DNA from: Candidatus Omnitrophota bacterium
Lineage (GTDB): Bacteria; Omnitrophota; Gorgyraeia; Velamenicoccales; Velamenicoccaceae
Direction: 5' to 3'
Length of the DNA stretch: 63,275 nt
NCBI GenBank assembly: GCA_043802125.1
Contig: JAZDLG010000036.1
Location: 1-63,275, forward strand
Shown: positions 2,864 through 63,275 of the stretch, in pieces
Layout of the letters: every line of letters begins with the position of its first letter
Position numbering within the stretch: position 1 is the stretch's first letter
The notes under the pieces: generated by a model
Database searches by the model: none
What the model saw: the letters and a program-made list of their open reading frames with translations, nothing else
Told to the model about the DNA's origin: nothing
Program-made: the position numbers and the translations under genes

Positions 2864-3268
2864 TTACATTACTGTTTGTGCCGTTGCATCGCCTGTCATG
2901 TTACCGGCTTGGCTTATATTAATAACATAGCCGCCTAATCCTGGATTGTCTACGGCATTCCTTGTAGCAGTAGAAACAACCGTAGTTTCGACACCGATAG
3001 CGCCTCCACCAACAGCAGTGATTGTAAAGTATTTTGGCGTCTGGAATGTTAGGTCAAGTTCTGTAAGGGTACCAGTAAAAAGACCTCTCTCCGCGGAATA
3101 TCTCATCTGTGAGCTCCTGACCTGCCCTAACAGAGCCTTTGCTTCAGCAACTCTACCCTTCTCAGCTATCTTGATATATCTGGGCAAAGCTATAGATGCT
3201 AAAATACCAATGACGATAACCACGATGATAAGTTCAAGTAACGTGAAACCTCTCTTGTCTTTACGCAT
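2864..3268 (-). CDS. type IV pilin/GspG-like, candidate major pilin
   Basis: MRKDKRG|FTLLELIIVVIVIGILASIALPRY followed by AEKGRVAEAKALLGQVR. It has its own sigma70-like promoter and a very strong SD (GGGAGGGAGGAATAAGATG). It contains no Cys. Confidence 0.75.
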   Translation of the reverse strand: MRKDKRGFTLLELIIVVIVIGILASIALPRYIKIAEKGRVAEAKALLGQVRSSQMRYSAERGLFTGTLTELDLTFQTPKYFTITAVGGGAIGVETTVVSTATRNAVDNPGLGGYVINISQAGNMTGDATAQTVM

Positions 3269-8583: not shown

Positions 8584-9109
8584 GATATACCGCCTCAACA
8601 ACCATATCAACTTTCAGCATTATGTCGGTTTTTTTCTGTTGGTCGGCGCCGATGGGGCCAAGTGATACGGACCTTATCCTGATCAACATCTCAGAAGTCT
8701 CGATATTTTTGGCAAACTTCATAAAATCGCTATAAGTAGCCTCCCCGCTCAAAGCAAGAGGTATCAAGATATAATTTTTTTCATCTCTCTTTTCACCGGG
8801 AGAAATATCCCTGAGCTTGACCTGCGATTCAAGTCCGACGTTATATACCTTTTCTATGATCCGGTTGGTGTCTGAGGTATCCCAACCCTTGGTTTTGAGC
8901 TTTTTTATTTTTTCATTCACAGCCACTATACGGCTCAACGTTTCGCCCTTTTCTTCTTCTGTCTTAATATTGTCAGTTAACTTACTATATTTCAACATCT
9001 GTTGCCGATAAAAGCTCCTGGATATGACGATAGAAAGAATGATAATGACTACGATCACGATCTGATCGCGCTTATTCTTGACTATTTGGGCATAGTTTAC
9101 GTCAGCCAT
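8576..9109 (-). CDS. PilO-like pilus assembly protein
   Basis: Single N-terminal TM, a coiled-coil segment and a C-terminal ferredoxin-like region. It follows the PilM-PilN gene. Confidence 0.45.
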   Translation of the reverse strand: MADVNYAQIVKNKRDQIVIVVIIILSIVISRSFYRQQMLKYSKLTDNIKTEEEKGETLSRIVAVNEKIKKLKTKGWDTSDTNRIIEKVYNVGLESQVKLRDISPGEKRDEKNYILIPLALSGEATYSDFMKFAKNIETSEMLIRIRSVSLGPIGADQQKKTDIMLKVDMVVEAVYLK

Positions 9110-9112
9110 TAT

Positions 9113-10741
9113 TTATATTCCGCCTATGGTCGCTATTTTTTCGCTTTTATTTTCACAAGTTACGTCAAACTGCATGTAATAGACTTTGCCTACGTTAACC
9201 TCGCGATATGATTTTAGTTCTATTGAAGGCGTATCCTTAGAGAAATCATTGTTTCCTTTAAGATTCAAGATAAATTTATTTATATTTTCTGACCTCATCT
9301 TCTGATCCGCATCATAAGAATAACAATGAAATTTCAGCGAATGTGGATTAGCGGAATAATCCAGCCCGGTCAACCATACGCCGGTCGGCATCAATCTTGA
9401 CAAAAGCAGGACCTTTTTATAGAAAAATGTGTTGTTAACTACCAATTTGCTGAAATCCCTTTGCTTTTCATTGAAAACCCTCTCGCTGGACTGAATACTC
9501 TCCAGGCTTGAGAGATCTACGCCCGGCAAAAGAGGCAGCTGTTTGACAGAAGCTGTGGCAAGCTGTTTTTCTAATGGAAATAGCTTTGAGAAACTCATGC
9601 CATAACCGGCGAGAAAGATCGCAACTCCTATTGCGAGGCCTTTCAAAATAGATGCTTTTGACTGTTTTAAAAAATCTGTAAATAAGACCTGCAGGTCTTC
9701 ACCCGAAGGTGCCGCTGCAGCCAAAGCTAATTTATCTGCTTTTTCTTTGGCTTTCCCGAGATTAAGTGTCACCAGAGACGGCCGCTCTATCCGAAGAGCA
9801 GCTCCATATGCCTTGGCTATATCTGATAACATATCTTCCTTGACGTCCTTTATCTTAAACAGGTCGTTAAGCGCTACAAAACTTACTTTAAGCCCCAATT
9901 CTTTGCTAAAATTGTCCACCCATGAACTATAACTTTTATTGGATATGACGATCATCTCGTCAATATCCCTTTTCATAAACTGCCTTCTATAGTAATCAAG
10001 CGATACTCTCACTTCATTGATAAGCCTAAAGAGAATGGCGTCAAATCCCTCATCCTCTTTAACGGCAGAGGCCGTGGAGATAAGTTTGATATCCCTGGTG
10101 AAATAAGGAAAACCTTTCTCCGCTATCAGGATATTCGCTTCTTGTTGATCGAACTCCAGGATAACGTAAGACTTTGTACTCAAGATCTTATTTTTAATGA
10201 CAAGAAGCCTGAAAAGACTGAATAGCGCAGGTTCAAAAGCTACGACGTTTAAATTAAGCTGCCTGAACAATCCTATATACTTATCAATAGGGTCTTGCTT
10301 GATGCCGCATAATACTACTTCAATGATATTGGCCTTTTGCTTTACGCGATACTGAAAATCATAGGCTAGTTCTTCTATCTTGAAAGGTATGTATTTCTTC
10401 ATCTCAAAATTAATACCCGCCAATACCTCAGACCTGGGTATATTGGGCATTTCAAAAAATCTGATTATAAGGTCTTTTGGCGGAAGAGCCACTACGACGC
10501 TTGACGTATCGATCCTGCTGTCTCTGATCGATTTTTGCAAAAAGGCGATCATTTCCGTTTCTTTATTTTTAAAAAGTTCAAATATATCATCAGAAAAAAT
10601 ACCCGTTGTGTCCTCGCGCTTTACAGGATAGGGCACACCCAATTGATTTTTTATTTTTCCCGCGGCCTGCTGGATGATGACCATACCTTTAGAGCTAAAG
10701 AAAAGCCCGGCTACATCTTTTTTAAAAAAATTGGCCAGCAT
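9113..10741 (-). CDS. PilM-PilN fusion protein
   Basis: The first ~330 aa are an actin-like PilM-type region. This is followed by a TM helix (GLAIGVAIFLAGYG) and a PilN-like C-terminus (LMPTGVWLTGLDY). An SD AAGGTGAGGG lies upstream. Confidence 0.6.
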   Translation of the reverse strand: MLANFFKKDVAGLFFSSKGMVIIQQAAGKIKNQLGVPYPVKREDTTGIFSDDIFELFKNKETEMIAFLQKSIRDSRIDTSSVVVALPPKDLIIRFFEMPNIPRSEVLAGINFEMKKYIPFKIEELAYDFQYRVKQKANIIEVVLCGIKQDPIDKYIGLFRQLNLNVVAFEPALFSLFRLLVIKNKILSTKSYVILEFDQQEANILIAEKGFPYFTRDIKLISTASAVKEDEGFDAILFRLINEVRVSLDYYRRQFMKRDIDEMIVISNKSYSSWVDNFSKELGLKVSFVALNDLFKIKDVKEDMLSDIAKAYGAALRIERPSLVTLNLGKAKEKADKLALAAAAPSGEDLQVLFTDFLKQSKASILKGLAIGVAIFLAGYGMSFSKLFPLEKQLATASVKQLPLLPGVDLSSLESIQSSERVFNEKQRDFSKLVVNNTFFYKKVLLLSRLMPTGVWLTGLDYSANPHSLKFHCYSYDADQKMRSENINKFILNLKGNNDFSKDTPSIELKSYREVNVGKVYYMQFDVTCENKSEKIATIGGI

Positions 10742-40287: not shown

Positions 40288-40394
40288 AGATCCTTGACAT
40301 TCACCTTGACAATACATCGATGAAAATGTCAAGGATGAATTCGGACACATACTTTACATAAACTTTCGTTTATGTAAAGTATGTCCTCATTCAA
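40288..40394 (-). repeat. intergenic element family E, copy E6
   Basis: Minus strand: GAATGA, P1 GGAC/GTCC, P2 ATACTTTACATAAAC/GTTTATGTAAAGTAT (15 bp), GAATT, then P3 ATCCTTGACATT/AATGTCAAGGAT and CT. Confidence 0.85.
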
Positions 40395-41608
40395 TTATAA
40401 TCCGCGTTAATTCTCACATACCCGTAAGATAGGTCCGACGTATAAACGCAAGCCTCTGCTCTTCCTACATGCAGGTCAATGTCTACCCGCACGTTACTAC
40501 CCCGTAAAAAATCATTATTCTTAACAGGAACGGGTTTGCCGTTTTTAAAAACAAACTTTTTATTCAAATTAATATCCAACTTCTCAGCTTTTAAGGCCGA
40601 CGGGATAGAGCCTAACGCAGCTGCGATCCTACCCCAATTAGGGTCAGAGCCGAACATCGCGCACTTAAAAAGATTGGAATTAGCTACGCTAAACGCAAGC
40701 TGCTTTGCCGAAGAATAGTTAGAAGCACCCTTGACACGTATCTCAATGAATTTCGTCGCTCCCTCAGCATCGCGCACGATCATCTTAGCCAATGCCAGGC
40801 AGACTTCTTTAAGAGCAAGACAAAAAACAGCCTCTACAGCAGTGCCGCTTTTAATAAGCGCGCTATCGGATGCGCCGTTAGCCATAGCGACAACAGTATC
40901 GTTGGTGCTCATACAGCCGTCTATAGTAATAGCGTTAAAAGAAACTCCAACCGCGTCTCTGAGCGCTTTCTTTAAGACTTTCCCTGTAACAGAGGCGTCC
41001 GTAAAAATATAAGCGAGCATAGTCGCGTGCCTGCCTGCCGGCAGGCAGGTTTTCATTTGAGGCGCTATCATACCTGCGCCTTTAGCGATACCTGAAATAA
41101 TAACCCTCTTGTGCCCTATCCGGAATATCTTTGAAACCTCTTTTCGGAAAGTATCCGTTGTCAGAATAGCAGAAGCGGCATCGGATAACCCCTTGTAAGA
41201 AAGCTTCTTAGCTAAAACCGGAACCGCTGCCCTTATCTTTTCCATAGGAAGAAACTTTCCGATGATGCCCGTAGAAGATACTAAAACTTGTCCCGCGTCA
41301 ATTGATAGGCTCCTGGCAACAAGCTGTGTTGTGGTTATGGCATCAAGTAATCCCTGTTTGCCGGTCATGCAATTGGCATTACCGCTATTGACAACAACAG
41401 CCTTAAGGCTACCCTTAGTTAGATGCCGTCGGCTGATCTCAAGCGGTGCAGCCTGTATGCGGTTAGATGTAAACAGGCCGGCCGCAACACATGGCCGCAA
41501 CGAGTAAAAAAGCGCCAGGTCCTTTTTGCCGCTCTTTTTTATTTTTGCTGAAATTCCGCTGGCCTTAAATCCCAAAGGGAGGATACCGGAATCAAACTGC
41601 AGGCTCAT
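40391..41608 (-). CDS. argJ: bifunctional ornithine acetyltransferase / N-acetylglutamate synthase
   Basis: GFKASG, KGAGMIAPQM...ATMLAYIFTDA and CMSTNDT. It carries a 9-aa insertion (KTCLPAGRH) encoded by a 20-bp palindrome just before the A|TML self-cleavage site. Confidence 0.93.
   Translation of the reverse strand: MSLQFDSGILPLGFKASGISAKIKKSGKKDLALFYSLRPCVAAGLFTSNRIQAAPLEISRRHLTKGSLKAVVVNSGNANCMTGKQGLLDAITTTQLVARSLSIDAGQVLVSSTGIIGKFLPMEKIRAAVPVLAKKLSYKGLSDAASAILTTDTFRKEVSKIFRIGHKRVIISGIAKGAGMIAPQMKTCLPAGRHATMLAYIFTDASVTGKVLKKALRDAVGVSFNAITIDGCMSTNDTVVAMANGASDSALIKSGTAVEAVFCLALKEVCLALAKMIVRDAEGATKFIEIRVKGASNYSSAKQLAFSVANSNLFKCAMFGSDPNWGRIAAALGSIPSALKAEKLDINLNKKFVFKNGKPVPVKNNDFLRGSNVRVDIDLHVGRAEACVYTSDLSYGYVRINADYN
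41030..41049. repeat. 20-bp perfect palindrome CCTGCCTGCCGGCAGGCAGG (copy inside argJ)
   Basis: Read directly from the sequence. It is identical to 58877-58896. Confidence 0.95.
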
Positions 41609-57467: not shown

Positions 57468-57647
57468 CTATTTGCTATTTTCATCAACGAATTTCTTTAT
57501 TTCCGCTATATTATCCACGATCAGCTTTGCCTTGGTCATGCCAAAAGAAAAAGGATATTTATCTTCTCCGTCCCTCTTTAAGATAAGAATTGGCTTGCCC
57601 TTAAACTCCCCTCGCTCAACGATACAACCCTTATTTTCGTTTTCCAC
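57468..57647 (-). CDS. 59-aa protein, tentatively PC4/YdbC-like ssDNA-binding fold
   Basis: This ORF is not in the track because it is under 60 aa. It has a GTG start 4 nt after AAAGGAGAGGAAA. Sequence: MENENKGCIVERGEFKGKPILILKRDGEDKYPFSFGMTKAKLIVDNIAEIKKFVDENSK. It has a paralogue immediately upstream. Confidence 0.45.
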   Translation of the reverse strand: MENENKGCIVERGEFKGKPILILKRDGEDKYPFSFGMTKAKLIVDNIAEIKKFVDENSK

Positions 57648-57676
57648 TTTCCTCTCCTTTTGTTATGCTGCCAGTT

Positions 57677-57875
57677 TTACAAGTCCTTTATAAAACCTTC
57701 AACCGTATCCCTTATGACAGACCATTCTTTACCTGAATGGAATGCTAATTTTTTATCCCTTTTCCACACCACCCAACGCATTGTTCTTCTTGATCGTCTT
57801 ATAGCGCAGGACTTTTAGCGACGCGCTGACCGGCAACGGCTCATTATCCTTTATCTCCGCGTTCTCGTCTAACAT
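57677..57875 (-). pseudogene. frameshifted paralogue of the 59-aa gene
   Basis: Frame a (57753-57875, SD GGAGG) gives MLDENAEIKDNEPLPVSASLKVLRYKTIKKNN... Frame b (57677-57781) gives (M)RWVVWKRDKKLAFHSGKEWSVIRDTVEGFIKDL. Together they align along the downstream paralogue, and the frames switch in an A-rich run. Confidence 0.4.
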
Positions 57876-57893
57876 TTTTTCCTCCAAATGGTC

Positions 57894-58095
57894 GCAAGGC
57901 AACTTCCTGCTCCGCCGACTGAAATTTTTTGCCGTTGACGTCGGTTTACGCCTCGTTCGTCACGCTCACATCTCCCTCACAAAGAAAACAAGCGCCTGGA
58001 TTATTCTCGGTCGGTTCGCAACGAACTCGAGCGTAAATCCTCGTAAACACTTGCCAAAAAATTTCTAATGTCAGCTCCGCAGAAACTTACCTTGC
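57894..58095. repeat. ~200-bp imperfect fold-back (MITE-like element or long-hairpin RNA)
   Basis: The termini GCAAGGCAACTTCCTGC and GCAGAAACTTACCTTGC are 14/17 complementary. Inner pairings are AAATTTTTTG/CAAAAAATTT, TTTACGC/GCGTAAA and TCGTTCG/CGAACTCGA. The apical hairpin is CTCGG..GTTCG-caa-CGAAC-TCGAG. Confidence 0.6.
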
Positions 58096-58171
58096 TCCTA
58101 CTTCAACAAACTCTCGCCGCCGCCCATACAACACTTCTTGGTTTTCAAATACCCAATCTCAATTGTATACC

Positions 58172-58750
58172 TCAAATATCTCTTCCTAATTCTGTCTTTA
58201 TTAATATTCGCAAACATCCAATAAAATCCATAATTCCATCTAAATCAAAAGATGCAACAAAACCCAAAGAATACTCCAAGCCATCAGAGAGTTTTTCTTT
58301 TCCTATGGAATCAGCGACAGTAGGAGTAGGATACCGCGCATGCCAGGTTGCATAACGGGAAAGTTTTTTAAGAAGAATTTGCTCTGCAACATCAACTCTT
58401 AATCCAATTTCATTCTTTACTAAATCAAACAAATCATGATTCTTAAGAACTTTGGGGATTTTGCTTAAAGTCATCGCCTCCCATTCTTTCATCTTTCGAC
58501 CAACAATAATAGCTTTGCAGAAATTCTCAATTGCAAAAGCCATTAACATATAGTAAACACCTTGCATGGTTGCCATGTTATTATCAAAGATTATCTTGCC
58601 TTTCTCATCTGAAACTTTTTTCCAGTGAAAATCAAGCTTATTTTTTAAAATATCAGCCACAGAAATAAGTTCAACAGCTTTTGATAACCACTGGACAGGA
58701 TCCTTTAAACGTTTTGAAAATATTTCCAGATTATTTAATTCATTCTTCAT
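58172..58750 (-). CDS. hypothetical protein with a HEPN-like Rx4H motif
   Basis: 192 aa, predicted all-alpha, and AT-rich relative to its neighbours by eye. The motif LSRYATWHARYP gives R-x4-H. It sits next to vapBC in an accessory islet. Confidence 0.4.
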   Translation of the reverse strand: MKNELNNLEIFSKRLKDPVQWLSKAVELISVADILKNKLDFHWKKVSDEKGKIIFDNNMATMQGVYYMLMAFAIENFCKAIIVGRKMKEWEAMTLSKIPKVLKNHDLFDLVKNEIGLRVDVAEQILLKKLSRYATWHARYPTPTVADSIGKEKLSDGLEYSLGFVASFDLDGIMDFIGCLRILIKTELGRDI

Positions 58751-58876
58751 TTTTAATTCTCAATTGTTATCAACTCAATAACCCGTTCGCTCCTACACCA
58801 ATGCCATCCAGGTTTGTGGCGATGTAGCCTTCTGTCCAAGCAGACAATAAGAAATTTTCTACCAAATGTTGGCAAG

Positions 58877-58896
58877 CCTGCCTGCCGGCAGGCAGG
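58877..58896. repeat. 20-bp perfect palindrome CCTGCCTGCCGGCAGGCAGG (intergenic copy)
   Basis: Read directly from the sequence. It is extended by the outer pairing CCAAATGT/ACATTTTGG, with one unpaired T in the longer arm. Confidence 0.95.
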
Positions 58897-59026
58897 GAAT
58901 TACATTTTGGCTGTAGCGACACGGTTCTATGGAGCGTAACAGCGAAAATGCAAACCGAAGCAGACGGCAAAAAACTTCGTTTGCTGAACAGAGCCTTGCC
59001 TTGCCGCTTACCTTCTGTGAAGCCTG

Positions 59027-59425
59027 TCATCTTATCCACGCGATCTTCACTTCGTGCTCTACCGCCTTAAACTCCTTATCGCCTGTTAAAACCTCGGCTT
59101 TACGGAGTTTCGCCAGCGCTGCGGCAAAACAATCAGCATAAGACATTTTATAGCCGGCTTTCAGGCGGCCCGCTTCCCGGGCCAATAATATATCCACATC
59201 TACAATTTCGATAGGCAGGGTTTTTATGAGATTTTCGATCTCGCTGACCTTCTTTGCGCCACACTCGCGCAGCACAATATAATAAACCTCACCATAATTG
59301 ACAGATGCCATCAAGAGAGGACTATCCTTTTCCGCAGCCTCAACAAGGGCCGCCTCAATCTTCTCAAACCCAGCCTCTTTTTCCAAAAAAACTAATAGGC
59401 CGTGAGCATCAAGTATTCTTATCAT
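59027..59425 (-). CDS. vapC: PIN-domain toxin
   Basis: ILDAHGLL (Asp6), DCFAAALA and LTGDKEF acidic residues. 132 aa. It starts 3 nt after the antitoxin stop. Confidence 0.85.
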   Translation of the reverse strand: MIRILDAHGLLVFLEKEAGFEKIEAALVEAAEKDSPLLMASVNYGEVYYIVLRECGAKKVSEIENLIKTLPIEIVDVDILLAREAGRLKAGYKMSYADCFAAALAKLRKAEVLTGDKEFKAVEHEVKIAWIR

Positions 59426-59427
59426 TA

Positions 59428-59673
59428 TCAGGCCTCTCTTTCCCTATCTCTGCGGCGTTCCTCAATTAGCGCTTTTGACAGCTTCCCCTTTGTGCCTAAA
59501 ATACCGGCCATCTTTTCAAAATATCCCGGAGTTACGGCCCTTAAAACAAGCGTATCATCTTTTTCTTCAATAAAAAGCCTGGTTCCTTTTTTAATGTGCA
59601 GCCTTTTGCGGATTTTGGAAGGAATAACTATTTGGCCTTTTGTCGTAACAGTAGTCGTTGTCATTTTATTCAT
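59428..59673 (-). CDS. vapB: AbrB/SpoVT-type antitoxin
   Basis: TKGQIVIPSKIRKRLHIKKGTRLFIEE is a swapped-hairpin motif. There is a GGAGG SD. Confidence 0.85.
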   Translation of the reverse strand: MNKMTTTTVTTKGQIVIPSKIRKRLHIKKGTRLFIEEKDDTLVLRAVTPGYFEKMAGILGTKGKLSKALIEERRRDREREA

Positions 59674-61847: not shown

Positions 61848-62264
61848 TCACGGCAGGCAATCAGAGCCTGAGCAGGCAATGCGATTGCCGTCAGAATCAA
61901 ATGTATAGGTGGCGTTCTTTGAAGCGGTGCCGCTAAAGACGGTAACATTAAATGACGGCGGCATTGCGGTGTTGTTGTTGACACGGTAATTGCGAAAATA
62001 GCCGTCAGAAACTTTTATAGCCAATTTGTTGTTTGTGTCAACCGTACTACCCGTAGAGACGTAAAAAGTTTGAGTTAGGGAATATGCCTTCTCAGCAGCG
62101 GCAATAGTCCTTGCTTGGGCTAACGCAGAGGTATACTCGTTCCTTTTTTTTCTTTCTGAATAATTCACTGTAGCCATAGATGCAAGGACAGCCAGGATAA
62201 TTACAGTTACAAGGAGCTCTATTAAAGTAAACCCTGTTTGGATGAAAGCTCTCTTTATGGTCAT
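61848..62264 (-). CDS. type IV pilin-like protein
   Basis: ...IQTG|FTLIELLVTVIILAVLASMA, with a C-terminal Cys pair (ACSGSDC). Confidence 0.65.
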   Translation of the reverse strand: MTIKRAFIQTGFTLIELLVTVIILAVLASMATVNYSERKKRNEYTSALAQARTIAAAEKAYSLTQTFYVSTGSTVDTNNKLAIKVSDGYFRNYRVNNNTAMPPSFNVTVFSGTASKNATYTFDSDGNRIACSGSDCLP

Positions 62265-62275
62265 TGAATTAATTT

Positions 62276-62653
62276 TTAATATGGCGGCGTGACAACTAAA
62301 GTGCCGTTAGCTAAATAAACGGTGATATTTTTTGCCGAATCTCCTACGCGCAAAGCAATGATCCTTGGGTTACCACCCGTATTGCTCCAGCCATAAGTAA
62401 AACGGGCAGCGGATGGTGTACTCATCCCGAGCCTGTCCCATCTTCCGTTAACCTGTCCCCAGGCAACAGACTCTTCATTAGCTACCCTTCTCTGATATCC
62501 CGCATAAGCAGTTAAAAGAACCTGCTTTGCCTCTGCTCCTCTGCTTTTCTCAATGATCTTTGAATACTGAACACCTGCAATAGAGACAAGTATGCCCAAA
62601 ACTATGACAACAACGATCATTTCAATTAAAGTGAACCCTTTACGGATCTTCAT
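62276..62653 (-). CDS. type IV pilin/GspG-like protein
   Basis: MKIRKG|FTLIEMIVVVIVLGILVSIA followed by IEKSRGAEAKQVL. Confidence 0.7.
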   Translation of the reverse strand: MKIRKGFTLIEMIVVVIVLGILVSIAGVQYSKIIEKSRGAEAKQVLLTAYAGYQRRVANEESVAWGQVNGRWDRLGMSTPSAARFTYGWSNTGGNPRIIALRVGDSAKNITVYLANGTLVVTPPY

Positions 62654-62741
62654 GTTTTTATTCTATTATAAAAAACCCAATAATTCAATAACTAAATACC
62701 ACCCAGCCCAATCGGATGGGCTGGTGTGCCGCTTTCTGCGG

Positions 62742-62780
62742 CAAAAAATAAAGCCCCTATGGATTTTACCATAGGGGCTT
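62742..62780 (-). terminator. rho-independent terminator after 5S rRNA
   Basis: Minus strand: AAGCCCCTATGG-taaaat-CCATAGGGGCTT followed by TATTTTTTG. Two more hairpins follow at 62699-62744. Confidence 0.8.
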
Positions 62781-62788
62781 AAATTAAA

Positions 62789-62903
62789 GAGGCGCCGTTC
62801 TACTCTCCCAGGCCCTTGCGAGCCAAGTACCATTGACCTCGAGGAGCTTAACTACCGTATTCGGAATGGGAACGGGTGTTTCCTCCCCAGTATAGGCACC
62901 TCA
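62789..62903 (-). rRNA. rrf: 5S ribosomal RNA
   Basis: The reverse complement reads GGTGCCTATACTGGGGAGGAAACACCCGTTCCCATTCCGAATACGGTAGTTAAGC...GGGAGAGTAGAACGGCGCC. It has the conserved CCGAA(C/T)ACGG loop and helix I pairing GGTGCC/GGCGCC. Confidence 0.9.
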
Positions 62904-63022
62904 ATATTTGCGCAGCAAATATTGAAATTTAATTGACAATTTCTGTAAAGTTTTTTTGGATAAGTAAGCCGATGAATCTCTCTTTAAGCCAATCTGTCAC
63001 AATAAATTTTAATGACAAATTA

Positions 63023-63275
63023 GCGGTCAAGCCGATTGACAATTAGTATCCTTTAAGCTGAAACCCTTACGGGTCTTACACTTAGGACCTATCAACCCGG
63101 TGGTCTTCCGGGTGTCTATTCTTGTATTGCTACAAGAGGGAAGTCTATTCTTAAGGCGAGCTTGGCGCTTATATGCCTTCAGCGCTTATCTCTTCCGAAC
63201 ATGACTACCCAGCCTTTGCCCTTGGCAGGACAGCTGGAACACCAGAGGTTCGTTTGTCCTGGTCCTCTCGTACTA
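63023..63275 (-). rRNA. rrl: 23S ribosomal RNA, 3'-terminal ~250 nt (partial, continues beyond window)
   Basis: The reverse complement starts TAGTACGAGAGGACC (sarcin-ricin loop). It then contains GGAAGAGATAAGCGCTGAAGGCAT, GTTGATAGG and ACTAAT, as in the E. coli 23S 3' domain. Confidence 0.9.

Follow-up and report, generated by a model that had tools for sequence, protein, structure and literature searches.

A Candidatus Omnitrophota genome carries a 20-bp perfect palindrome inside its gene for the bifunctional ornithine acetyltransferase / N-acetylglutamate synthase ArgJ, and the same 20-mer recurs unchanged in many bacterial phyla and in viruses. Here, we report on this palindrome, CCTGCCTGCCGGCAGGCAGG, hereafter PAL, starting from a stretch of 63,275 nucleotides (contig JAZDLG010000036.1 of assembly GCA_043802125.1; the window) that harbours it twice, within argJ at 41030..41049 and in an intergenic position at 58877..58896, in both cases strandless. 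We consider it likely that PAL is a sequence-defined, non-autonomous selfish palindrome that is mobilised in trans, with the two window copies as members of a dispersed family. Comparison of loci establishes precise insertion of the 20-mer, a preference for hairpin apices, nesting of copies, a variant spectrum centred on a master sequence, and presence/absence polymorphism. Both palindromes had been noticed at these positions in an original prediction made from the letters of the window; once the size of the insert is corrected, that observation is essentially right and its interpretation is supported. A 20-nt element shared across phyla appears to be undescribed so far.

Distribution and anatomy of the palindrome

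That two identical palindromes of this length do not arise by chance had been asserted beforehand, and none of 100 dinucleotide-preserving shuffles of the window contained any match to PAL. The two copies are the only 20-bp palindromes in the window, and the longest palindrome in 50 mononucleotide shuffles measured 18 bp. Exact PAL was found in at least 120 stretches of GTDB species-representative genomes and in 35 stretches of IMG/VR viral contigs; by our own arithmetic about 0.5 occurrences are expected by chance in 596 Gb. According to record titles the hosts belong to the Patescibacteria (many classes), Bacteroidota, Omnitrophota, Planctomycetota, Verrucomicrobia, Elusimicrobia, Ignavibacteria, Thermodesulfovibrionales (Nitrospirota), Thermodesulfobacteriota, Bdellovibrionales and Chloroflexi, and they include seven cultured Bacteroidota isolates (Winogradskyella, Flagellimonas, Longitalea, Flavivirga, Aquiflexum, Agriterribacter and Aestuariivivens). 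The GC content of PAL-bearing loci ranges from 0.30 to 0.72, and PAL-bearing contigs were recovered repeatedly from different metagenomes (locus L130 equals L159, and L134 equals L156). The original prediction had proposed a genome-wide count of the 20-mer and its flanks; wide dispersal without common flanks is what emerged, and PAL is not confined to the window or its close surroundings.

Two control palindromes matched to PAL in type of composition, one with the same arms in inverse arrangement and one a CCAG version, gave no viral matches. PAL itself was found in none of 50,697 deposited phage records and in none of 5,426 complete Escherichia coli genomes, and plasmids yielded partial matches only. 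A Runella plasmid match was rejected as PAL, since ETGLPAGRIQGE is a native aldehyde-dehydrogenase motif with only 18 nt matching, and 21-nt partial matches with one mismatch in Sinorhizobium plasmids were treated as chance. Nothing relevant was found in the full-text literature for the 20-mer, its sub-strings or its three peptides, a silence that may be explained by the absence of PAL from deposited phage records and E. coli; more general keywords led to nothing beyond the analogues compared below. One record titled 'uncultured Gammaproteobacteria' (L104) encodes a GatB 65-94% identical to GatB proteins source-named Candidatus Shapirobacteria / Patescibacteria; judged by such protein identity, some PAL records with this title are probably mislabelled bins of the candidate phyla radiation (CPR).

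No neighbouring gene recurs around PAL: all-against-all clustering of 2,351 open reading frames (ORFs) from 155 loci returned only phage structural genes and housekeeping families. The 150-nt flanks of PAL copies have nothing in common except in duplicate contigs, and they contain no motif; the first base outward is T in 41%, C in 25%, G in 24% and A in 9%, and the enriched tetramers each occur at most 8 times in about 330 flanks. The 20-mer is the whole PAL unit, with no gene and no larger conserved element attached. A larger element ending in PAL half-sites was considered and rejected, solo half-sites being decayed full copies. A fixed unit of 21 nt was likewise rejected, as the extra base lies 5' in the ArgJ clade of the window and 3' in the ArgJ orthologue P0114 and in ScpB, GatB has gained 12 nt, and non-coding sites have gained exactly 20. 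As a single strand PAL folds into an 8-bp stem with a CCGG loop at -8 kcal/mol. It may also be written as 7 nt + GCCGGC (RCCGGY) + 7 nt. Rfam had no family match at either window copy.

A degenerate scan with four free positions recovered PAL (42 copies in 35 loci) together with neighbours one or two substitutions away and nothing else. About 40 further decayed copies were present in 1.29 Mb of PAL-bearing loci, against none in 148 kb of unrelated GatB loci. Because this spectrum is star-like, we propose that the perfect master sequence would give rise to new copies, which point mutations then degrade. A transition that changes G8 to A, or equivalently C13 to T, in the pair closing the tetraloop is the commonest decay form. 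It is seen in unrelated loci and in relatives of the window argJ (window 41037; L038, L086, L087, L145, L266, L268 and others), and deamination may be concentrated at this position when the hairpin is extruded. A lineage-specific subfamily of the CATGCCTACCGGCAGGCAGG type has 22 copies in 7 loci. In related viral contigs this variant plus C forms tandem arrays with a period of 21 bp (L163 3916-4142, L276 4718-4758 and L257 6696-6770); the L163 array runs for at least 10 units to the contig end, and one of its ORFs reads (MACLPVG)n.

Insertion can be read directly where empty and filled sites coexist. In alignment A2, a hairpin-repeat family within one viral contig, six copies are empty and three are filled; the gap is exactly 20 columns wide, there is no target duplication, and in the filled copies PAL sits at the 3' edge of the loop. 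Six tRNA-like 5' fragments recover a canonical D-arm when exactly 20 nt are removed, and in L030 an intact tRNA-Val paralogue lies 80 nt downstream. PAL in tRNA-like sequences is located in the D-arm in L015, L030, L037, L085, L099 and L161 and in the variable region in L131 and L154; most of the sequences hit are truncated 5' fragments, upstream of or apart from intact tRNA genes, and the insertion falls within 2 nt of the junction of D-loop and 3' D-stem. PAL copies are also nested in older PAL copies (L018, L042, L021 and L134/L156), one nucleotide off centre in the first three. Flanking inverted repeats of at least 7 bp surround 11 sites where 3 are expected, and those of at least 6 bp surround 23 of 165 sites where 9 are expected. 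At 146 of the 165 sites any flanking direct repeat is 0-1 nt long, as in controls.

Some copies have exact direct repeats of 7 bp (L045, L080, L082, L101 and L148), 8 bp (L132) or 14 bp (L138) at their flanks, often within short heptamer or octamer tandem repeats, and in L130 (11227-11273) two PAL copies are 27 nt apart (20 + 7). Staggered insertion on occasion, cycles of insertion and excision, or a preference for slipped tandem repeats could account for these flanking repeats. The viral contig L150 contains hairpin repeats, GGGTGCCCCATCCTTGC-loop-GCAAGGGTGGGTC, that resemble repetitive extragenic palindromic (REP) sequences, at 545-595, 1146-1193, 2499-2549, 2990-3037, 8899-8946 and 10502-10549. 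Four copies in this contig have another perfect palindrome, TCCGCCGCGGCGGA, in place of the loop, so that other loop-filling palindromes may exist.

Insertions in coding genes and beside the ArgJ cleavage site

Crude ORF calling in low-GC loci assigned about 64 copies to intergenic and 17 to coding DNA. Copies are much denser in intergenic DNA, which fits selection against most coding insertions. PAL is distributed over convergent, co-directional and divergent intergenic classes as the background is, and an association with terminators or gene ends was rejected on this distribution. PAL contains no stop codon in any frame and is translated as LPAGRQ, CLPAGR or PACRQAG. Of 104 copies in the low-GC loci, 10 lie in an ORF that continues through PAL and extends for at least 60 aa in both directions, a number that drops to 2 after in silico deletion of 20 nt; coding copies therefore represent a net multiple of 3 nt.

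Such copies were located within the Pfam domains of FtsK, GatB, ribosomal protein S6, ScpB, a PMT_2 glycosyltransferase and a dTDP-glucose-dehydratase-type enzyme, the last of which has a nested double copy. The loci L043 and L047 were considered as the same site in homologous CPR proteins, which was rejected, one being ribosomal protein S6 and the other an unrelated membrane protein. Relatives of the affected GatB that are up to 94% identical read DD-GQT-VY where the PAL allele reads DD-LPAGRQV-VY; at the DNA level GAT GAT GGT CAA ACA GTT corresponds to GAT GA[PAL]TG GTT, a net gain of 12 nt with about 8 target nt displaced. Where the gain is 21 nt, the extra base is found on either side, as described above. 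In our reading the standard event adds 20 nt, and selection passes only the few junction variants by which the frame is preserved at a permissive site. The frame is also preserved in the decayed copies of ArgJ orthologues, which together with the net multiples of 3 nt counts against splicing by an intron or intein; 20 nt, or 7 aa, is far below the size of any known ribozyme or intein.

The window argJ (40391..41608, minus strand, 405 aa) is located in an argC-argJ-argB-argD-argF operon that is syntenic with relatives. Its close homologues all carry PF01960 and the source name ArgJ, and its matches among ornithine acetyltransferase (OAT)/ArgJ entries of the PDB include 1vz6, 1vra and 3it4, with E down to 1e-55. 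Translation of the ORF bears out the sequence KGAGMIAPQM-KTCLPAGRH-ATMLAYIFTDA around the site. The boundaries of the insert were set by alignment A1 of 19 ArgJ sequences and by codon-level comparison with orthologues having or lacking it. It comprises 21 nt (41030..41050, minus strand), namely codons 187-193 (TCLPAGR), which read ACC TGC CTG CCG GCA GGC AGG between AAA and CAC and consist of PAL with one additional base 5' of it on the coding strand. The closest orthologues without insert read QM-KQ-ATML or QM-KH-ATML, and the two residues bordering the insert therefore belong to the host gene: Lys186 (41051..41053), on the 5' side, is also present in uninserted orthologues, and His194 (CAC; 41027..41029), on the 3' side, is CAG (Gln) or CAT (His) in uninserted close relatives. 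The insert had originally been taken as 27 nt encoding nine residues, a count that is valid solely against Streptomyces clavuligerus OAT2 (PDB 1vz6), in which there is no linker. In the orthologue alignment that had then been suggested, relatives without the palindrome are also without the extra residues.

The insert lies within the last ten residues of the alpha chain and ends two residues before the autoproteolytic scissile bond between Ala195 and Thr196 (codons at 41021..41026, minus strand), the beta chain beginning with Thr196. Throughout alignment A1 the ATML motif does not vary, and cleavage before the threonine, as the original prediction gave it for characterised proteins, agrees with solved structures: residue 1 of the beta chains 1vra_B, 3it4_B and 2vzk_B aligns to query residue 196, and the alpha chains align up to residue 185. 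An AlphaFold2 model has a per-residue confidence (pLDDT) below 50 at residues 180-196, and among 120 homologues the linker at this site varies from 0 to 16 aa. By alignment and model, the ArgJ site is thus a naturally permissive, disordered and length-variable tail that would form the C-terminus of the alpha chain after the predicted self-cleavage. The insert would be tolerated because it lies in this linker, as the original prediction had suggested; the landing was in frame, as also claimed there, although in the linker preceding the nucleophile and not in a catalytic loop. From its position the insert is probably near-neutral, and the disordered linker, its natural length variation and the retention of inserts in several lineages suggest that self-cleavage and activity persist with the seven additional residues.

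Presence and absence of the insert alternate among ArgJ orthologues that are 84-94% identical. Copies at the same position are found in P0002 (CCGTGCCTGCCGGCAGGCAAG; 89% identical) and P0019 (GCTTGTCTGCCGGCAGGCAGG; 62% identical), and P0005 and P0023 carry 18-nt versions at the same nucleotide position. In P0008 (66% identical) both PAL arms are perfect and are split by a further insert of 24 nt. The Leu-Pro-Ala-Gly-Arg codons are identical in the insert-bearing lineages while flanking synonymous sites have diverged; it is therefore the DNA sequence that is conserved. With the linker left out, the tree groups the sequences, with + for insert and - for none, as (P0001+, P0003-), (P0002+, P0004-, 94% identical), P0005+, P0006-, P0007-, (P0008+, P0010-), (P0019+, P0023+), a pattern that on this topology would require at least four gains or precise losses. 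Codon 194 (window 41027-41029; L121, L122, L123 and L129) is mostly His (CAC/CAT) in insert alleles and Pro in P0005, while close uninserted alleles have Gln (CAG), with CAT in P0006; this split suggests that the two allele classes are old or have been exchanged by recombination.

The orthologue P0114 (51% identical, 385 aa) contains exact PAL in another reading frame and 5 nt nearer the Thr codon, the site ATG GC[C CTG CCT GCC GGC AGG CAG G]GA ACC being translated as NM-ALPAGRQG-TML; other matches at about 50% identity that have no linker at this site (NM|ATML) are 378 aa long. On this comparison P0114 is a second, independent insertion into ArgJ. The argJ site is spanned, with the insert present, by contigs that stem from related populations in independent groundwater and freshwater runs, and this argues against an assembly chimera; two of them have the common decayed variant (G8 to A), and one has an additional 21-nt unit. 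The contig from run X1, whose identity to the window in this region is below 90%, has 21 additional nt (GCCTGCCTGTTCGGTAGGCAG) beside the argJ palindrome (window 41028), and its linker insert amounts to 14 aa, either through a second adjacent insertion or through a diverged tandem duplication. The 24-nt sequence inside the P0008 palindrome (L127 3560-3603) and the 24-nt linker of P0068 (L168, ACPERSRG) have the 13-mer GCGAAGCCGAGGG in common, and a second small insert family may use the same ArgJ hot spot.

Proposed mobilisation in trans and the alternatives

PAL has no coding capacity and must for that reason depend on functions supplied in trans if it moves. The basic event is exact insertion of 20 nt without target-site duplication, preferentially at or beside the apical loop of existing hairpins, among them older PAL copies and the D-arm of tRNA-like fragments. 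A trans-acting machinery specific for both sequence and hairpin would recognise the folded PAL hairpin. Our preferred model, by analogy with proposals for REP sequences with their REP-associated tyrosine transposases (RAYT) and for insertion sequences (IS) of the IS200/IS605 type, is a single-strand 'peel-and-paste' in which an HUH/RAYT-like or similar enzyme would transfer the folded 20-nt hairpin into single-stranded loops. A bolder version is conceivable, and we put it forward tentatively, with somewhat more doubt than conviction: PAL would be the smallest mobile DNA yet seen, cut out and pasted with precision into single-stranded loops by an enzyme, or by a hijacked core replication or repair function, common to Patescibacteria, Bacteroidota, bacteria of the Planctomycetes-Verrucomicrobia-Chlamydiae (PVC) group, Nitrospirota and their phages; it would cross phyla and, in essential proteins, work as a natural linker-insertion mutagen that adds 7 residues.

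Several observations weigh against mobilisation in trans. No transposase, HUH or recombinase gene was linked to any PAL copy among the neighbouring genes examined, and we know of no mechanism that keeps a 20-mer identical across phyla. The junctions of coding copies are not uniform, at +1 or -8 nt, and direct repeats of 5-14 bp occur at 8 of 165 sites where 0.5 are expected, five of them being exactly 7 bp; neither is predicted by a transposase with a single fixed stagger. There are just 2 copies in the 63 kb of the window, and its genome was present in none of the indexed sequencing runs (best word share 0.13). In ArgJ, gain and loss are not separable, and the His/Gln pattern at codon 194 hints at an old polymorphism moved by recombination rather than at repeated gain in that clade. 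Mobility itself is read from comparative patterns and not from an observed transposition.

The variable junctions (+1 nt, -8 nt and occasional duplications of 1-14 bp) make capture during break repair a serious alternative. Free PAL DNA, as duplex or hairpin oligonucleotides stemming from other copies or from a replicon, would be ligated into nicks or double-strand breaks, which are frequent at extruded hairpins, and junction variation would follow from end processing. Sites at exactly +20, sites at +21 with the extra base on either side and the +12 of GatB all fit this explanation, as do insertion points lying about 2 nt or less from loop/stem junctions, the places at which hairpin nucleases cut. 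However, it needs a source of abundant free 20-mers and their exact excision at the ends of PAL, and random breaks do not predict the bias of the flanks: among the junctions of 125 copies (L001-L120), A-PAL-T occurs 33 times and T-PAL-A twice, with G-PAL-G and C-PAL-C together accounting for 33. Many of the hosts (Patescibacteria) have few end-joining functions, which also counts against it. We regard capture during repair as unlikely, though as deserving of attention.

The four other explanations are each contradicted by several independent results. PAL could be a motif of use to the host (for binding, for recombination, or as a hairpin that terminates transcription or stabilises mRNA) that has been spread and kept by selection, with the ArgJ copy functional in protein or RNA. 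Its perfect conservation across phyla, the commonness of its perfect form alone, its stable hairpin and its mostly intergenic copies are what such a motif might display. Against this, copies are located in essential coding regions in all three frames, in pseudo-tRNA fragments and inside each other; their distribution over intergenic classes is that of the background, with no T-tract rule and no Rfam match; the closest relatives without the ArgJ insert keep an intact gene; and many copies are decaying. A host function is accordingly improbable.

It is more improbable still that the palindrome arises independently in situ by template switching or quasi-palindrome correction, with nothing moving at all. 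Strand switching can complete palindromes, and the empty sites of GatB (GGT CAA) and ArgJ (AAA CAG GCG) weakly resemble the right arm of PAL, but such a process copies local sequence and cannot produce one 20-mer at more than 160 sites when neither the sites nor their flanks are related; the control palindromes had no matches, and the empty hairpin copies of A2 have no half-site. The original prediction had left open whether the element was mobile or repair-generated. Its dispersed nature is upheld by identical copies in many phyla and viruses, the lack of common flanks, empty/filled pairs, nesting and at least two ArgJ insertions, while an origin by repair in situ falls with the number of unrelated sites.

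We give hardly any credence to the insert being part of an ancestral ArgJ linker kept for protein function, with the second window copy a coincidence. Linkers resembling ACLPAGRH are shared by several Omnitrophota ArgJ, and (R/K)H closes the linker of many other ArgJ; sister sequences without insert, conservation at the level of DNA and synonymous sites, the independent copy in another frame, and the same 20-mer elsewhere in the window and in many phyla all speak against it. An assembly, adapter or chimera artefact is just as implausible, as PAL is present in SPAdes, MEGAHIT and long-read assemblies, in curated complete genomes and in cultured isolates, diverged and frame-preserving copies occupy the same ArgJ site in independent samples, insertions are precise with no flanking base lost, and the E. 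coli genomes and phage records that lack PAL were made with the same technologies.

If PAL is mobile, as we favour, the lower size limit of a transposable unit would be a single 20-nt hairpin, and an activity that cuts and joins DNA with specificity for both sequence and structure would be common in poorly studied phyla (CPR, Omnitrophota and Bacteroidota) and their viruses, which would be of biological and possibly technical interest. Natural in-frame heptapeptide insertions in essential proteins (ArgJ, FtsK, GatB, S6 and ScpB) would mark structurally permissive sites, and PAL would be a recurrent source of length variation beside the ArgJ self-cleavage site. The 20-mer and its three peptides are easy markers for annotation, by which misreading of PAL as a lineage-specific feature or an assembly error may be avoided.

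Relation to known palindromic repeats and the window setting

PAL is filed here as an extreme form of the short selfish palindromes, of the REP, Rickettsia palindromic element (RPE) or GC-cluster type. With REP sequences, RPEs and organellar GC-rich palindromes it has in common that it folds into a hairpin, encodes nothing, lies mostly between genes, nests and is now and then translated in frame (PMC3733652, PMC10969869, PMC2670323). It has no GTAG or CGTC tag, no parent IS, no fixed duplication and no fixed target motif, is not species-specific and measures 20 nt in place of 100-150 bp, and is therefore assigned to no named family. The mobile GC clusters of yeast mitochondria are found inserted in each other and in hairpins, sometimes in frame in a gene (var1). 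Short palindromic repeats in Volvox organelle genomes are small GC-rich palindromes that have spread as selfish DNA in AT-richer genomes, and in this they are like PAL (PMC2670323). Both kinds are organellar, lineage-restricted, heterogeneous and typically 30-50 nt or longer, whereas PAL is bacterial and viral, fixed in sequence and 20 nt long.

Miniature inverted-repeat transposable elements, or MITEs, have a length of at least 50 bp, keep the terminal repeats of an identifiable parent IS and make a target duplication of fixed length. Like PAL they are non-autonomous, with inverted repeats, mostly intergenic and sometimes fused in frame to ORFs, and, as is proposed for PAL, they are mobilised in trans (PMC10969869). 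PAL differs in having no internal sequence, no identifiable parent IS and normally no duplication; empty and filled sites differ by exactly 20 nt, and no longer element with PAL half-site ends was found. Elements of the IS200/IS605 type, including derivatives known as palindrome-associated transposable elements (PATE), depend on hairpins and generate no target duplication, and a lack of duplication is also what A2 and the tRNA-like fragments display. These elements insert into single-stranded DNA, 3' of a constant target of four or five nucleotides, and require two different end hairpins; PAL consists of one hairpin, and no target motif of this kind was found in its flanks.

REP sequences and the bacterial interspersed mosaic elements (BIME) that they form part of are short (20-40 nt), GC-rich and mostly extragenic hairpin repeats, for which mobilisation in trans by an HUH enzyme that works on hairpins of single-stranded DNA has been proposed (PMC3733652). 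PAL shares their size class, GC-richness and mostly extragenic position. REPs, however, are imperfect palindromes with a conserved tag (GTAG or CGTC); each is specific to a species, where it usually numbers hundreds of copies and flanks a RAYT gene, while PAL is a perfect palindrome and identical across phyla. No consistent GTAG or CGTC end was found at PAL, GTAG abutting few copies only, and no RAYT-like gene lies beside any PAL copy in the 155 loci, a result that concerns neighbours, as whole genomes were not searched for unlinked RAYT. RPEs likewise are palindromic and without coding capacity, and they are inserted in frame in unrelated protein genes and translated at permissive sites (PMC10969869). 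PAL is similarly inserted in frame but departs from them in size (20-21 nt), sequence and host range: RPEs measure about 100-150 bp, comprise about ten families and are restricted to Rickettsia, while PAL has a single sequence of 20 nt, is mostly intergenic and occurs in many phyla and in viruses.

The second window copy lies between two ORFs on the minus strand, a hypothetical one of 192 aa without Pfam match (58172-58750) and a PIN/VapC-like toxin gene (59027-59425). A weak 6-bp inverted repeat surrounds it (58865..58907; AAATGT at 58865-58870 and ACATTT at 58902-58907), so that this copy, too, would possibly sit in the loop of a hairpin, although a repeat of 6 bp is within chance expectation. 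It belongs to an islet (57468-59673) between rsmD/coaD and recG that comprises a 59-aa ORF, the 192-aa ORF, and the PIN (VapC-like) toxin with a MazE/AbrB-type antitoxin. The end of the window (61848-63275) holds genes for two pilin-like N_methyl proteins and for 5S rRNA, together with the 3' end of a 23S rRNA gene.

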